64,000 nt of DNA. Origin: Patescibacteria group bacterium (GTDB lineage Bacteria > Patescibacteriota > Patescibacteriia > Patescibacteriales > UBA12465). Shown here one piece after another: positions 10,951 to 33,826 of this stretch (within the stretch, counting starts at the first letter, position 1; each line of letters begins with the position of its first letter). Where the stretch lies: the NCBI GenBank assembly GCA_041649315.1, contig JBAZNJ010000001.1, positions 284,549 through 348,548 of the forward strand, given 5' to 3'. The notes beneath the pieces were generated by a model, which saw nothing but the letters and a program-made list of their open reading frames with translations, made no database searches and was not told the origin of the DNA. A program made the translations under genes and the position numbers.

Positions 10951-11107
10951 AGGTTCTTAAGTAAATTGTCGTCCTCGCCCGCCGCCGGCTTGTTCAGTCC
11001 CCCGACTTACGAGGCAAAATAATTGACTTATTCCTTAAAATTTATTAATATAAACGGAATCGTAATTTAAAATTTAACTATTAATCACTATAAAAAGGAG
11101 GTAACTC

Positions 11108-11830: not shown

Positions 11831-11972
11831 AGGCCATCTAATCATGTCTAGTGCGAAACCCCGTTCTCATAAATTGAGCGGGGTTTTATAATATAAAACA
11901 GAATTTAACAAATATTGAACACTTTCTTTCGTTTTGTAGTCTTAAAATCTCGAGTTTCCGAAAAAATTGGTG

Positions 11973-12013
11973 AGATTATTGGGGAAATTGAGGAGTGGAC
12001 GGAAATTTTAAGT
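11973..12013 (+). repeat. Partial third copy of the 3' portion of the 137-bp repeat (gagattattggggaaattgaggagtggacggaaattttaag)
   Basis: About 37 of 42 nt identical to 14048..14089 and 18978..19018. Confidence 0.7.
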
Positions 12014-13951: not shown

Positions 13952-14089
13952 TTCGATTCCCCCGGCTAACGCCGTCTAATTAAAAAGCGCCCAGCTAACG
14001 CTGAGCCCTTTTTAATAGCCCTAAAATCTGAGGTTTGACAAAATTACAACGGGATTATTAGGGAAATTGAGAAGTGGGCGAAAATTTTA
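13952..14089 (+). repeat. 137-bp direct repeat copy 1 (left boundary of the methyltransferase/Z1 cassette)
   Basis: Near-identical to 18882..19018 (about 3 mismatches over about 137 bp). It begins with ttcgattcccccggctaacgcc. Confidence 0.9.
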
Positions 14090-14106
14090 AGGCGAAACGA
14101 TCCTCT

Positions 14107-17993: not shown

Positions 17994-18470
17994 TTAATTA
18001 ATTACTATTTCCGGCCAATCCTGCAATGGTACCTTGTGGCTCAATTTTCCATTCGGACCCGCGACGGCATATTGCTCATTAAAATTTCTTTTAGCCGACA
18101 GCCACATGACAGCACCGTCCAAAAGAGTAGACGCCTCCGCCCAGTCTATAGCGCATACGCCATCCCCGCCGCACACAAGTGCAATAACACCCTTTACCCA
18201 TAGCTTCTCTGATTCAAGAAGAAAATTTACTTCTTCACTGCTAATAATGAAACGCCACGGGCTTTTAACTTTTGTCGAATATTTAATAAGAACGGCCGAT
18301 TTATCGTTGATAAGGTAGCCTATTCCAAACCGCTTAATATTAGAACATTTCTGAGAATTTAAGGCTCTGATGAGGGCTGAGCCATAGTAAAATTCTTGTT
18401 TGTCTATCATATATTGATGATATTTATATTTTAGCACTTTTTTCCAAAGACGGAAATTGCGAATAATCAA
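17994..18470 (-). CDS. Hypothetical protein, first gene of the methyltransferase/Z1 operon
   Basis: 158-aa ORF, 7 nt upstream of the Z1 gene. Confidence 0.35.
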   Translation of the reverse strand: MIIRNFRLWKKVLKYKYHQYMIDKQEFYYGSALIRALNSQKCSNIKRFGIGYLINDKSAVLIKYSTKVKSPWRFIISSEEVNFLLESEKLWVKGVIALVCGGDGVCAIDWAEASTLLDGAVMWLSAKRNFNEQYAVAGPNGKLSHKVPLQDWPEIVIN

Positions 18471-18721
18471 ATAATTTTAGTCCATTGATTCGCCTTCCAT
18501 TTTTTGCTATAATGCTCTCATAGACTTATTAATAAACAATAATAAGGCAGGAAGATAAAACCTAGCTACGGCTAGTCAGATTACGTCCATGAATTTAAAC
18601 ACGCAGTCTTCAATATAATAACGAGCAAAGTCTAAATCTTTGCCAACTCAACTTAAAACACGAGCAATATATCCGGATATATGACTTGTGTTTTTTGTTT
18701 GGCCGAGTGGCCGTCTTATCG

Positions 18722-18881
18722 GGATTACAGTCTACCCTAGGGGAATCATCGCCCTCGCCCGCCGCCGGCAAAGCGGCGGGCTAACTTGTCCTGGGTCAGC
18801 GTTAAGCATCCCCCGGATGCTTAGCGACGCTCTCCTTTTCGCTTCGCCTCCCGGCTCAGCTCAAGACTCGCTTCTGACCTG
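18722..18881 (+). repeat. GC-rich structured unit, copy 3, preceded by a partial copy of the tRNA-Glu 3' end (ccctaggggaatcatcg)
   Basis: Collinear with 19888..20060 (ccctaggggaatcatcgc...cttgtcc...gttcgattccc). Contains perfect hairpins gcccgccgcc/ggcggcgggc and taagcatc/gatgctta. About 60% GC against an AT-rich background. Confidence 0.7.
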
Positions 18882-19018
18882 TTCGATTCCCCCGGCTAAC
18901 GCCGTCTAATTAAAAAGCGCCCAGCTAACGCTGAGCCCTTTTTAATAGCCCTAAAATCTGGGGTTTGACAAAATTACAACGGGATTATTAGGGAAATTGA
19001 GAAGTGGACGGAATTTTC
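18882..19018 (+). repeat. 137-bp direct repeat copy 2 (right boundary of the methyltransferase/Z1 cassette)
   Basis: Near-identical to 13952..14089. Its last ~30 nt encode the C-terminus of the minus-strand NYN gene. Confidence 0.9.
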
Positions 19019-19713
19019 CAATCATCAGGTTTATGAAAGTCACCATTAATATCCACCATATCATCAAAAAATTGAGAATTTGCTAATGCCAATTTTCGAA
19101 TTATCTTTATGTCTTTATTTACGGCATCTTGAAGCTTATGATTGGTTTTTTTATAAGGGTTTAACAATCTTACTTTTAATCCATCACGACTATTTGCTAT
19201 TTTTATCGATTCCGCCAAATCAGAATCATTAGAAACTATTATGGCGACATCAAACTTTTTTTCATAAACATCTACAATTAGATGGGTGGCTAAATTTACA
19301 TTAGAACCTTTTTCTTCGGTTTTTTTGACAACCAGGTAATTTTTGCCAAGTAAAGGGAGTCTGGTTTGCGCTTTGTCGAATTCAACGTTAGCCTCTTGTC
19401 GGCCTGTTTTTTGACATTTTTCAGGCACAAACATTGTGGCCTCGTTTTCCAAAAAAGTTCCTGGTATTATTTCTAAATTAGGAAGAGTGCGCAGAGCTCG
19501 AAAATATGTTAACTGTCTAACCGGTTTATCCAAATCATCCTTGCGAGCCTTAGTGACAGCTGAAAAATATTTTATTTTTTTAATCTCATATTTTGGAAAA
19601 TAAAAACCGGCCAATTTGTTTAAATCTAGCCATTTATAACTAGTTCTCTTCAGGCTGCCATAGAAAAGATTAAAACCATCGACATATATATACGCCGTTA
19701 ATTTTTTTGCCAT
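18988..19713 (-). CDS. NYN domain (LabA-like) protein; start taken at the internal MAKKLTAYIYVDG
   Basis: YVDGFNLFYG N-terminal motif and IVSNDSDL acidic motif, both typical of NYN/LabA nucleases. Confidence 0.7.
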   Translation of the reverse strand: MAKKLTAYIYVDGFNLFYGSLKRTSYKWLDLNKLAGFYFPKYEIKKIKYFSAVTKARKDDLDKPVRQLTYFRALRTLPNLEIIPGTFLENEATMFVPEKCQKTGRQEANVEFDKAQTRLPLLGKNYLVVKKTEEKGSNVNLATHLIVDVYEKKFDVAIIVSNDSDLAESIKIANSRDGLKVRLLNPYKKTNHKLQDAVNKDIKIIRKLALANSQFFDDMVDINGDFHKPDDWKIPSTSQFP

Positions 19714-19887
19714 ATCACGTCTAGATAAAAGCAGAGGTCGCCTTACGGCGACCTCGCGTTCTGCCACCGAAGCGACAGAAGTAGTATATGACTATATTAT
19801 ATAGCAAGCGCTTGCTAATGTAAAGAGCTAAACTTTCGCTAATTCTACAAACAAAAAGAGAACTGGCACAAGCCAGTTCCCCGATAG

Positions 19888-20070
19888 TAGCCCCTAGGGG
19901 AATCATCGCGCTCACTCGCCGCCATAATGCGGCTCGTTCACTTGTCCGGAGTCGGCGTCGAGTCCTGCGCCAGCTCGGACTCGCCGGCGCTCGTTCGCTC
20001 GTTATTTCTTCCGAAATAACTCGCGCCTCGCTTCCGACTTGTTCGATTCCCGGCTCGACAATTACAAAAT
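19888..20070 (+). repeat. GC-rich structured unit A; begins with a 16-mer identical to the tRNA-Glu 3' end (tagcccctaggggaat)
   Basis: Homologous to 18722..18881. Hairpins gccgc/gcggc, gagtcc/ggactc and gttatttc/gaaataac. Followed by hairpin aaataacgcacaaagtgcgttatttt at 20071..20098. Confidence 0.7.
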
Positions 20071-20103
20071 AAAATAACGCACAAAGTGCGTTATTTTATT
20101 TTG

Positions 20104-20270
20104 TAGCCCCTAGGGGAATTCCGCCTCGCGGCGCTTAGCCGCGCCGCTCGTTGCCCGGACGGACCCGATAAACGCTCGCTCGCTCGCGTTTATCGTCGCT
20201 CGATTACTCGAATTCGCTCCGCTCATTCTCGTATCTCGCTCGCCGTCTGTTCGCTTCCCCTAGTTTACCA
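20104..20270 (+). repeat. GC-rich structured unit B; begins with tagcccctaggggaat and has ends that can pair (ctaggggaa / ttcccctag)
   Basis: Second tandem unit with the same layout (16-mer, GC-rich body, terminator-like hairpin) immediately next to tRNA-Glu. Confidence 0.65.
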
Positions 20271-20280
20271 CCCATTAATT

Positions 20281-20310
20281 AAAAAACTCTAACATTCGTT
20301 AGAGTTTTTT
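20281..20310 (-). terminator. Rho-independent terminator of tRNA-Glu
   Basis: aaaaaactctaacattcgttagagtttttt: perfect stem with a U-run in the minus orientation, directly 3' of the tRNA. Confidence 0.7.
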
Positions 20311-20316
20311 AATTAG

Positions 20317-20388
20317 TAGCCCCTAGGGGAATCGAACCCCTGTTATCAGGATGAAAACCTGGTGTCCTAACCACTAGACGAAGGGGCC
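20317..20388 (-). tRNA. tRNA-Glu (anticodon UUC)
   Basis: Reverse complement GGCCCCTTCGTCTAGTGGTTAGGACACCAGGTTTTCATCCTGATAACAGGGGTTCGATTCCCCTAGGGGCTA folds as a cloverleaf (GTCT/GGAC D-stem, GGGGG/CCCCT T-stem, TTCGATT T-loop, anticodon TTC). Confidence 0.9.
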
Positions 20389-20532
20389 ATTGCTCTTGCG
20401 ATAATGGCGCAAAATAAAAATCTAAGTCCTTAGATTTAATCTTATTTTATAGATAAACCCATTTTCTGTCAAGAATTTTAGGAGCCTGATTCAATAGTTG
20501 TTTTTTTCCTAAAATACCCTACAATAATAGAT

Positions 20533-21817: not shown

Positions 21818-21823
21818 CAAAAT

Positions 21824-21853
21824 AAAAATACTCTAAAAGAGTATTTTTATTTT
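21824..21853 (+). terminator. Rho-independent terminator after tRNA-Cys
   Basis: aaaaatactctaaaagagtatttttatttt. Confidence 0.7.
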
Positions 21854-22765
21854 GATGTTTTGAAAGGGGAGTCGAACAGGTCAGGAGCGAGCTAGATATT
21901 CGCTAGCCATATTATCCCCAAACTAATCCCCAAACCTGTGGATAACCTGTGTTTTCTGTGTATAAAACCATAATTTAAGTCCAGGTTAGCGTGGACTTAA
22001 ACTATTAAAAAGACAATTTAATTAAATTATTTATTTAAATATTAGCAAAAAATACTAAAATATTCCATTTTAAGTCCACAATAGTTGACCCTTATTTTTA
22101 AAAGTGCTATAATATACTTAGGTTCATTAACTAGCTCTGGATTCATTACCGACGCTAACGCGGTAAAGAAAAAAGCTTGAGCAAATTAAATTGTGCTAAA
22201 AGAATAAAATTTGATAAAAGTCATAAAGAAATTTTTATTAAAATTTATTAAAAATTAGCAAAAATAATAAAAATTATTTTAAATTTGCTAGGAGCTGGTA
22301 AGAATTATTCTCTAAAGTTAGCAAGAGACTCAAAGTCCTTAATAATAATCAAGAAAAGATTAGAAAAAAAGGACTGAGGCTCATGACGCGGCTATTAATT
22401 AATTTACTTTATTTTATAATAAAGAGCAGCCCGTCATGGGCCTCTTTTGTTATTAAAAACCGATTTAATAGATTTGAGACTTGATTTAATATGTGGTTTA
22501 ATTGACAAAAATGGTTGGTGAAAATACTAAATTTGACGTAATATCAAATCAGAATAAGAAACAATTATAAAACGGATAATAATATAATAAAAAATATTGG
22601 CAAAATCGCTAATCTCGGCTATACTCAAATCATAATCTGCCATATATTCATATAATTCATATCTTCCGGATCGCTAAAATTGCAAATAATCATTATTCAA
22701 CCTATTTTAACGGACGAGCCTGACGAACAAATGCAATAATAAATTTTCCTAATATAAAATAAAAT

Positions 22766-33560: not shown

Positions 33561-33647
33561 GGAGACGTGTCAGAGTGGTTGAATGAGCCGCACTCGAAAT
33601 GCGGTATGCCGGAAACGGCATCGGGGGTTCGAATCCTCCCGTCTCCG
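33561..33647 (+). tRNA. tRNA-Ser (anticodon CGA), class II with long variable arm
   Basis: GGAGACG...GCCGCACTCGAAATGCGG...TATGCCGGAAACGGCATC...GGGGGTTCGAATCCTCCCGTCTCCG. Confidence 0.85.
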
Positions 33648-33826
33648 CAGATTGTCAATAGCCCTACAGCTACATTTTGCAATTTTATTCGTAGTTATTG
33701 ACATAAAATACCAATATGCTATTATTTAAATATATTCAGAATATGGTGATTAATGAAGAAACTCCTTTGTTTTACTAAAACCACCCACCCTGCCTCCGAA
33801 AGGGGGCACGGTGGGTTTTCCATTAT

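Follow-up and report, generated by a model that had tools for sequence, protein, structure and literature searches.

A family of folded repeat units with tRNA-specific ends in the trailers of tRNA genes of Patescibacteria

A 64,000-nucleotide stretch of a Patescibacteria genome (NCBI GenBank assembly GCA_041649315.1, contig JBAZNJ010000001.1, positions 284,549–348,548; hereafter the window) carries, behind its transfer RNA (tRNA) gene for glutamate, three units rich in G and C (A, B and C) that are members of a widespread, apparently undescribed family of folded elements of about 160 bases in Patescibacteria. The copies of this family share one fold, lie at a strict position and in a strict orientation behind tRNA genes, and carry ends that are specific to the neighbouring tRNA; they are duplicated in tandem, they decay, and their tRNA-like ends are re-used as attachment cores by genomic islands. 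The explanation that we favour, at about even confidence, is that of a small, non-autonomous and structure-dependent repeat element propagating in tRNA trailers, the 3′ block of which would be derived from the target and the conserved single-strand fold of which would be the recognised form.

The units behind tRNA-Glu and the family they belong to

The units are read here on the minus strand, that of the tRNA, which is the informative one for them. From the promoter of tRNA-Glu onwards, the arrangement is as follows (plus-strand coordinates).

20444–20472, minus strand: sigma-70-like promoter TTGACA-17-TAAAAT upstream of tRNA-Glu (11 of 12 matches, a match to the consensus only)
20316–20388, minus strand: tRNA-Glu(UUC) (ARAGORN; Rfam tRNA, 62.1 bits); units A and B end, on their 3′ side, in a copy of its segment ATTCCCCTAGGGGCTAC, which runs from A58 to the discriminator (+1)
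20276–20315, minus strand: perfect AT-rich hairpin of 18 bp, bordered by A and T runs, that begins where the tRNA ends (fold −20.1 kcal/mol), terminator-like in both directions
20104–20263, minus strand: unit B, with a diverged 'type II' body (covariance-model match 56.7 bits, E = 5e-15), 5′ block at 20249–20263 and 3′ block at 20104–20120
20063–20105, minus strand: perfect 20-bp hairpin, terminator-like, between units B and A
19888–20052, minus strand: unit A, with a 'type I' body (covariance-model match 158.4 bits, E = 1.7e-45)
19857–19882, minus strand: GC-rich hairpin plus T-run that immediately follows unit A and constitutes a one-directional intrinsic terminator for the tRNA strand
18893–18946, minus strand: terminator-like hairpin (18909–18946) and small spacer hairpin (18893–18904) directly upstream (in the tRNA sense) of unit C
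18731–18892, minus strand: unit C, with a 'type I' body (covariance-model match 154.1 bits, E = 3.3e-44)

A preliminary description of this stretch had pointed to the recurrence behind tRNA-Glu of the 16-mer TAGCCCCTAGGGGAAT, the reverse complement of the end of the tRNA-Glu T-loop, the T-stem 3′ strand, the acceptor 3′ strand and the discriminator. Exact copies of the 16-mer do occur at 19888, at 20104 and, within the tRNA itself, at 20317, and a copy with three mismatches lies at 18731; these four matches stand against 0.49 expected, and none of 100 shuffles attains four. The GC content of the three unit bodies is 59–66%, compared with 39% for the whole window, and the bodies are mutually homologous: the homology already noticed between units A and C extends to unit B, the body of which is a diverged subtype with its closest relatives at loci L003, L011, L012 and L018. 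The 3′ block of unit A (19888–19904) is an exact copy of that of tRNA-Glu, and the 3′ block of unit C is degenerate (CCCTAGGGTAGA, which holds the three mismatches mentioned above). Along the tRNA strand, each period runs through a hairpin, a spacer, the 5′ block, the body, the tRNA-like 3′ block and the next hairpin. The first hairpin of this order is long, perfect, AT-rich and terminator-like and begins directly 3′ of the tRNA or tRNA-like end; the spacer of 12–20 nt often forms a mini-hairpin; in the units of the window the 5′ block is GGGGAAUCGAAC and the 3′ block is (CGAU)AUUCCCCUAGGGGCUAC. Terminator-like hairpins flank every one of these units, and a flank homologous to the hairpin that follows unit A is found after unit U3 of locus L006. 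The site at 20444–20472 is the sole candidate promoter for read-through transcription into units B and A.

The family was delimited in several searches. A strict pattern built on the two ends gave 20 matches in the GTDB species genomes, 19 of which are true homologues, in low-GC Patescibacteria assemblies, with a tRNA-Glu (UUC or CUC) immediately upstream on the same strand at 13 of the 19 loci. RNAalifold on plain MAFFT alignments proved unsuitable owing to the variable hairpin lengths, and a covariance model (R1) was instead seeded by hand on the tRNA strand from nine 'type I' copies; R1 recovers all three units of the window (158, 154 and 57 bits) and further copies. A pattern restricted to body motifs matched 102 metagenome stretches, and R1, applied to 80 loci from among them, gave 107 matches there. 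Altogether R1 yields 132 matches across genomes and metagenomes of Patescibacteria, of which about 117 approach full length. The majority of genomes have a single unit, in many cases behind tRNA-Glu and without cargo, and some have arrays (three units at L015; two units, then cargo, then one more at L006). At the gathering threshold, Rfam 15 finds only tRNAs and leaves the units without a match, and in a permissive scan (E up to 10) of 18400–20500 the best non-tRNA matches reach 14–22 bits, far below the thresholds, and fall on hairpins. The full texts searched contain no description of the family; their coverage is incomplete, and an earlier description is possible. Scans of viral contigs gave either nothing or six chance matches that the model rejected, and a phage origin of the units was discarded on this ground. 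It should be noted that several contigs of 33–41% GC with units and with the Patescibacteria-type synteny tRNA-Glu/tsaD/tRNA-Cys carry labels that look wrong ('uncultured Gammaproteobacteria' for L003, L005, L011, L012, L013, L015 and L020; 'Bacteroidales' for L007); these assemblies may be mis-binned or mislabelled.

One architecture is common to all copies. The 5′ block pairs with the 3′ block, with a bulge of 1–3 nt, to form helix P1; the GC-rich body has three arms, with GNRA-type loops and tandem G–A mismatches. Two of the arms belong to P3, the first with repeated tandem G–A/A–G internal loops and a GGAA loop and the second a perfect hairpin with a CCGGGGG apex, and P2 is a further hairpin. 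The junction strands UCGAAC, GGACAAG.GA and GAG.GCG are conserved. The pairing of the two ends, recognised beforehand in unit B (where P1 is lengthened to CTAGGGGAA/TTCCCCTAG), is present in all three units of the window. Compensatory changes on both sides occur in 41 of the 50 pairs (101 distinct copies, in an alignment that was itself fitted to the model), and 90% of the cells are paired, compared with 29–40% when the partners are slid; none of 500 shuffles attains the observed values. The tRNA strand always folds better, but the z-scores of the two strands are alike (−3.3 versus −3.0), and a strand call from folding energy was dropped since it does not separate the strands once composition is controlled. 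The types of pair are more telling. Read on the tRNA strand, they include 177 G–U against 112 A–C (31:0 and 40:0 at two well defined pairs) and 208 G–A/A–G against 18 C–U/U–C, asymmetries which favour the tRNA strand as the one that folds. The GGAA loops also fall on this strand.

The ends of the units follow the neighbouring tRNA. All of the 49 units adjacent to a tRNA gene are on its strand, 46–62 nt downstream, and the adjacent tRNAs comprise 15 isoacceptors for ten amino acids (Glu, Gln, Ser, Ala, Gly, Asp, Val, Trp, Cys and Asn). The preliminary description had named the same units away from tRNA-Glu as an observation that would refute it, and such units exist: the family is not specific to tRNA-Glu, and copies behind these other tRNAs carry the respective tRNA 3′ end. 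The 3′ block is a perfect 17-nt copy of the adjacent tRNA from A58 in 34 of the 49 cases, and shows at most two differences in 39. The 5′ block is complementary to the T-loop and to the 3′ strand of the T-stem of the same tRNA (G53–C65); it follows T-loop positions 59–60 and the T-stem, with AUUC for GAAU, AAUC for GAUU, ACUC for GAGU and AGUC for GACU. Because the 5′ block changes in step with the tRNA, P1 (GGGGAATCG / CGAT-A-ATTCCCC), which reproduces the duplex of tRNA-gene positions 56–65 with its bulge of 1–3 nt, is effectively the T-stem of the neighbouring tRNA. The T-loop is effectively replaced by a structured insert of about 140 nt, and the acceptor 3′ strand becomes a free tail before the terminator hairpin. 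A lineage-specific variant of the window, GGGGCTAC, is common to the tRNA and to units A and B despite their different body subtypes.

Nothing tRNA-like is found beyond this end. One of the two explanations put forward in the preliminary description, a family of structured non-coding RNAs with tRNA-like 3′ ends, holds as far as the strong structure and the tRNA-derived 3′ end are concerned. On the window ARAGORN calls only the seven real tRNAs and no unit, and a comparison with tRNA-like RNAs (RF00005, tmRNA, mascRNA and YrlA) gave no Rfam tRNA-clan match in the units at E up to 10. The acceptor 5′ strand, the D arm and the anticodon arm are all missing from the units, and no sequence upstream of them is able to pair with positions 66–72, so that an acceptor-like helix cannot form. 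Two open reading frames (ORFs) of 73 amino acids (18688–18909, plus strand) and 64 amino acids (19721–19915, minus strand) overlap the units, where none of 60 amino acids or more had been reported; the overlap is mechanical and nothing indicates coding. As for the extended −10 element said to lie upstream of unit C, the site exists (TGCTATAAT, 18485–18513, plus strand) and is unrelated to the unit: it lies about 220 nt away, on the strand opposite to that favoured by the pair counts, and is separated from unit C by an inverted repeat with a T-run (18650–18699, plus strand). This inverted repeat begins about 140 nt beyond the site, and the two could delimit a short RNA from the plus strand that would be antisense to the leader of the restriction-modification operon.

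Turnover of the units and their use by genomic islands

The same body can be found with different ends. Bodies that are 83–92% identical carry the ends of different tRNAs, and the nearest neighbour of a body belongs to the same tRNA class in 37 cases and to a different class in 23. At the syntenic tRNA-Glu/tsaD/tRNA-Cys locus, different related genomes have different body types. The tRNAs Ser-CGA, Asp and Val of the window have no unit, and the same isoacceptors bear one elsewhere. Entire periods are tandemly and freshly duplicated at L055 and L081, and L006 and L007, two different contexts, share a module of 226 nt (core, hairpin, unit, core) at 100% identity. In the window, units B and A lie directly behind tRNA-Glu, and unit C and a truncated copy are set apart by cargo modules (NYN; Z1 and C5-methylase; Fic). 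Two decayed copies are evident, the second of which includes the X motif, a conserved segment of about 75 bp that marks the ends of these modules (see below).

21866–21908, plus strand: truncated tRNA-Cys-type unit of 43 nt, consisting of the 5′ block GGGGAGTCGAAC (the complement of the tRNA-Cys T-arm) and the start of the body
13953–14092, minus strand: duplicate of the X motif, hairpin, spacer hairpin and first 11 nt of the unit (GGGGAATCGAA), at the end of the restriction-modification cargo module

The first of these lies 47 nt after tRNA-Cys, behind the hairpin of that tRNA (21819–21853). The syntenic locus L001 retains 126 nt of a Cys-type unit (158–283) where the window has 43 nt, and CTGTGGATAACCTGTG follows the remnant in both. 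The second is a direct duplication of about 135 bp with respect to 18882–19013, the body of the copy at 13.9 kb being deleted after 11 nt. Patchy spread, decay, tandem duplication and near-identical bodies with different tRNA ends together argue for a mobile or duplicative element. Two contexts (L045, 3798–4030; L075, 8575–8767) are chimeric, with a tRNA-Asn-type 3′ block and hairpin upstream of a unit that ends in the tRNA-Gln type, which suggests that units mediate rearrangements between tRNA loci. A weak model match (10951–11011, minus strand; 13.5 bits, E = 0.015) that adjoins no tRNA resembles an internally deleted unit, with the 5′ block fused to the 3′ half of P2.

The genes around the units were grouped into 274 clusters of ORFs, and 145 representatives together with 40 chosen ORFs were scanned with Pfam and complemented by a motif search, which covered part of each genome. 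A single kind of recombinase recurs near the units, a large serine recombinase (Resolvase, Recombinase and Zn-ribbon domains). In eight related loci its gene abuts a tRNA or the 3′ block of a unit (such genes are found at L046, 1288–2799; L097, 442–2160; L105, 324–1838; L045, 9140–10384; and at L073, L048 and L094). It is antisense and reads into the tRNA or unit 3′ block, so that integration replaces the last residues of the enzyme, for example with ...RRERDSNPRYR from the tRNA T-arm. Several of these elements are accompanied by a G2P-like rolling-circle Rep. The junction cores are 6–8 nt long (tRNA-Ser, tRNA-Glu) and 16 nt at one tRNA-Asn-type junction (L045); at L046, an element of 2.6 kb bounded by the 8-nt core CTCTCCGC sits between tRNA-Ser and a pre-existing hairpin and unit.

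At the Glu loci the distal end of the cargo modules is marked by the X motif, which abuts the last 6–7 nt of the tRNA-Glu 3′ end (GACTAC) and the terminator. Eleven copies were aligned (tblastn and alignment), and the motif is also present in L005, L006, L007, L013, L014 and L018. The copies of the window and the neighbouring NYN gene are the following.

18945–19013, plus strand: X motif copy 1, which abuts ATAGCC (a remnant of the tRNA-Glu 3′ end) and forms the distal junction of the NYN module
14015–14092, plus strand: second copy of the X motif, within the duplicate at 13953–14092
11936–12010, plus strand: X motif copy 3, beside GTAGTC, at the far end of the island, adjoining an IMP-cyclohydrolase-like gene
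18988–19716, minus strand: NYN-domain gene (Pfam NYN, E = 2.8e-8), cargo between unit A and the X motif

Read antisense, the X motif gives the peptide VVLKSDISxNxxEIIxEIEKWAEIL with some synonymous-looking variation; the variation by codon position (16:9:16) is not clearly that of a coding sequence. The motif could be the recombinase-distal arm of the attP site or the detached C-terminal tail of a recombinase gene spanning attP. Three cargo modules are present: the NYN nuclease-like gene; an ORF of 158 amino acids with a Z1-domain protein and a C5 DNA methylase; and an ORF of 216 amino acids with Fic/DOC. Since three copies of the X motif delimit the modules and the same kind of IMP-cyclohydrolase-like gene lies directly after the unit at L018, the region from about 11.9 to 19.9 kb is a genomic island, inserted between the native IMP-cyclohydrolase-like gene and the units behind tRNA-Glu; no recombinase gene is left in it. 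The tRNA-like ends of the units and the hairpin that follows act as extra attachment sites for serine-recombinase islands, and this accounts for the NYN, restriction-modification and Fic cargo of the window. The NYN gene was considered as a dedicated partner of the units and rejected because the cargo differs by locus (Fic/CYTH, acyltransferase, NAPRTase or NUDIX genes elsewhere). It has its own promoter-like site (19796–19824); a GC-rich hairpin with a T-run (19734–19755, minus strand), between this site and the start codon, could be a leader terminator or attenuator. Finally, the 12 nt that follow tRNA-Ser(CGA) (33561–33648), AGATTGTCAATA (within 33649–33700), match the recombinase-proximal arm of the L046 element without a difference, an indication that a serine-recombinase element left a remnant here as well.

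Other candidate partners and mechanisms were considered in the same set of neighbours. No tyrosine recombinase is found among the Pfam-scanned neighbours or by the motif search, the matches to the 'HxLRH' motif being PLD-like proteins. As to a SINE-like, target-primed retroelement, the 145 scanned representatives of the 274 clusters show no recurrent reverse transcriptase, and partners acting in trans are possible. Analogies with TnpB omega-RNA or bridge RNA were rejected, there being no partner protein and the 'guide' being sequestered in P1; so was transposition of the casposon or insertion-sequence (IS) type, for lack of element-specific terminal inverted repeats. The idea of a primer-binding site, in which the plus strand would be complementary to the tRNA 3′ end, was abandoned since no TGG for CCA precedes.

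Readings of the element

In the propagating-element reading, the element would spread to new tRNA genes, and the 3′ block at a new site would come from the target, through a 17-nt target duplication from A58 to the tRNA end (A58–N74) or an equivalent recombination; P1 would be restored afterwards by a few compensatory changes. A target duplication reaching through the terminator was also envisaged and rejected, because the upstream and downstream hairpins are related to each other only in two recent tandem duplications. A machinery acting in trans would drive propagation and recognise the conserved fold of one strand, most likely that of a read-through transcript from the tRNA promoter and less likely that of single-stranded DNA. 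We lean slightly towards the RNA form because of the co-orientation with the tRNA, the terminators after every unit, the GNRA loops, the G–A pairs and the G–U asymmetry. The lack of an own promoter and the strong hairpins on both sides weaken the RNA form; this lack, the strong upstream hairpin and the near absence of wobble pairs keep the single-stranded-DNA form alive.

Several observations weigh against such a propagating element. The units have no promoter of their own and lie between two strong hairpins. The target duplication is something that we infer, no insertion with a matching empty site being present among the loci. The hairpins around closely related bodies are not conserved, which leaves the limits of the moving piece undefined; what looks like mobility could then come from gene conversion among resident units. 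The neighbourhood of the units shows no recurrent reverse transcriptase, transposase or tyrosine integrase, and the one recombinase that does recur uses a different, usually shorter core. About ten of the 49 adjacent units have a 3′ block that mismatches their tRNA, although two of these cases (L055 and L060) are artefacts of unit ends called too short by the model. The high proportion of perfect 17-mers is also compatible with selection that keeps the block identical to the tRNA, and hence with a host function. Finally, the helices are almost purely Watson–Crick on both strands, the z-scores of which are similar.

We may wonder whether the units go further than this and form a new class of nucleic-acid-guided mobile element or tRNA-half mimic, with a categorically new mechanism, an idea that we can only advance as tentative. 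The three-armed fold would then carry two programmable ends that match the T-arm and acceptor 3′ strand of the chosen tRNA, one as their complement and the other as an identical copy. With these ends the element could recognise the two strands of the tRNA gene, or the tRNA itself, and its insertion or action would take place precisely at A58. To our knowledge, no known transposition, integron or tRNA-mimicry system works by two programmable tRNA ends of this kind.

A host gene for a non-coding RNA is an unlikely explanation, albeit one with several points on its side. A stable RNA would be made from the tRNA 3′ trailer by read-through and processing and would mimic, through its T-stem-like P1 and its free acceptor 3′ tail, the 3′ half of the cognate tRNA. 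Where an enzyme or toxin reads the T-arm and acceptor end, the RNA might act as its decoy or partner; it might also pair with the 5′ acceptor strand of the tRNA, and its ends would be held identical to the tRNA by selection or gene conversion. The strong covariation and conserved junction nucleotides, the GNRA loops and tandem G–A pairs on the tRNA strand, and the constant co-orientation behind highly transcribed tRNA genes with a terminator following (one-directional in one case) are what such an RNA would show. So are the 34 perfect 17-mers among 49 units, the GGGGCTAC variant shared by the tRNA and units A and B across body subtypes, and the many genomes with exactly one unit behind tRNA-Glu and no cargo. 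Against this stand the patchy presence among tRNAs and genomes, the decaying and truncated copies, the stacking of several diverged paralogues at one locus, the absence of an own promoter behind a strong upstream terminator, the impossibility of an acceptor-like helix and the very small number of G–U pairs for an RNA of this size.

Less probable still, and to our mind doubtful, is a recombination site of folded single-stranded DNA comparable to the integron attC or the forked-hairpin attP of CTX phage. The inverted T-arm half-sites, about 140 nt apart, would anneal and rebuild the T-arm duplex of the tRNA gene, and a recombinase acting in trans would exchange it with that gene; in the product, one inverted half-site would stay intact and be followed by the structured spacer and by a hybrid site continuing into the tRNA 3′ end. 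The geometry fits this scheme (inverted half-sites, bulged P1, branched spacer), as do helices that are nearly pure Watson–Crick, the absence of a promoter and the insulating hairpins on both sides. Tandem accumulation at one target resembles that of the Xer-exploiting elements at dif, and some of the neighbouring integrated elements have genes for a G2P-like rolling-circle Rep. These Rep genes, however, belong to the serine-recombinase elements, the junction of which is different; no integron-type or Xer-type recombinase lies near the units among the scanned neighbours, the core motifs of attC are lacking, and viral contigs gave no match. Moreover, an element of the attP type must carry its own tRNA 3′ end, which makes the frequent switching between tRNAs hard to explain.

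That the units are inert scars, attL and attR sites left by ordinary prophages or islands serially integrated at tRNA-Glu, is very improbable: direct repeats of the tRNA 3′ part that start in the T-loop, cargo genes between units and serine-recombinase islands that do integrate at these ends would fit, but the fold beside the repeat is conserved over more than 100 copies with 41 of 50 pairs covarying, which contradicts this view, loci with one unit and without cargo are in the majority, as many as 15 isoacceptors are followed by the same body, and the recombinase junctions are 6–8 nt (16 nt once) and not the 17-nt block. The stacked att-site remnants that formed the other explanation in the preliminary description are accordingly retained only in part: stacking does reflect repeated insertion or duplication at the tRNA 3′ end, and ordinary att remnants are unsupported, given the covarying adjacent 140 nt or so, the absence of an integrase with the units and recombinase cores other than the 17-nt block from A58.

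If the family is indeed what it looks like, Patescibacteria, which make up a large and little understood portion of bacterial diversity, bear an unannotated and abundant class of structured elements tied to tRNA genes. This would explain the GC-rich islands behind tRNAs in AT-rich genomes, help to define island boundaries, and flag dispersed repeats that may drive rearrangements or cause assembly or binning errors. Ends rewritten for each tRNA point either to target recognition or insertion centred on A58 or to mimics of tRNA 3′ halves; both would be new to biology, and a recognition module that can be programmed might come of them. With the covariance model and alignments at hand, the question can be tested directly on transcriptomes and strain-resolved metagenomes.

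Comparison with known systems

The family, apparently undescribed, falls among the repeat or mobile elements associated with tRNA 3′ ends, and it lacks defining features of each system to which it can be likened. The closest in appearance are integrative elements that target tRNA genes, which Williams (2002) reportedly classified by sublocation (blocks of identity from the T-loop to the 3′ end). Like them, the units show a direct repeat from the tRNA T-loop to its 3′ end (exact 16–17-mers), stacking and cargo between copies. Unlike them, they have no integrase, measure about 160–215 bp as a whole, have a covarying fold beside the repeat and carry the ends of 15 isoacceptors. Between the repeats lie only the hairpin, the spacer and the unit, with no integrase-bearing element, and the sequence of the arm is constrained. 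Large serine recombinase elements of the phiC31/Bxb1 type account for the cargo modules and X-motif junctions of the window; being kilobases long, with a core of 6–8 nt (16 once), they form a separate layer for which the units are secondary attachment sites, and they leave the units themselves unexplained.

The tRNA-like structures and trailer RNAs (the tmRNA domain, mascRNA, YrlA and 3′ETS-leuZ) share with the units a tRNA-derived T-stem and acceptor 3′ strand and a location in the tRNA trailer; the units differ in having no acceptor helix, D arm or anticodon arm and no Rfam match, and in a tRNA-like part that is specific to the neighbour rather than fixed. Miniature inverted-repeat transposable elements (MITEs) and the GC-rich palindromic repeats of AT-rich genomes, such as the Rickettsia palindromic elements and mitochondrial GC clusters, are likewise small, non-coding, hairpin-forming, multi-copy, patchy and decaying, whereas the units have a strict tRNA-trailer target and orientation and a terminal repeat that comes from the target tRNA. 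Their inverted repeat of 9–12 nt (P1) varies with the target, and direct repetition is limited to the 17-nt tRNA copy, shared with the gene upstream and present on one side, in place of the short symmetrical target duplication of a MITE.

Integron attC sites have RYYYAAC/GTTRRRY cores and a single hairpin of 57–141 nt with extrahelical bases, and act together with intI and attI. The units resemble attC and the CTX attP in keeping structure over sequence, in inverted half-sites within a bulged duplex, in favouring one strand and in forming tandem arrays with cargo. They are on the other hand multi-branched structures of about 160 nt without RYYYAAC/GTTRRRY cores, without a link to IntI or Xer, and with the tRNA T-arm as target. 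The motif ATCGAAC of the 5′ block matches the attC core at six of seven positions, with no complementary GTTRRRY at the 3′ side. As in the CTX attP, two inverted half-sites fold into a bulged duplex, in this case one that mimics the tRNA-gene target.

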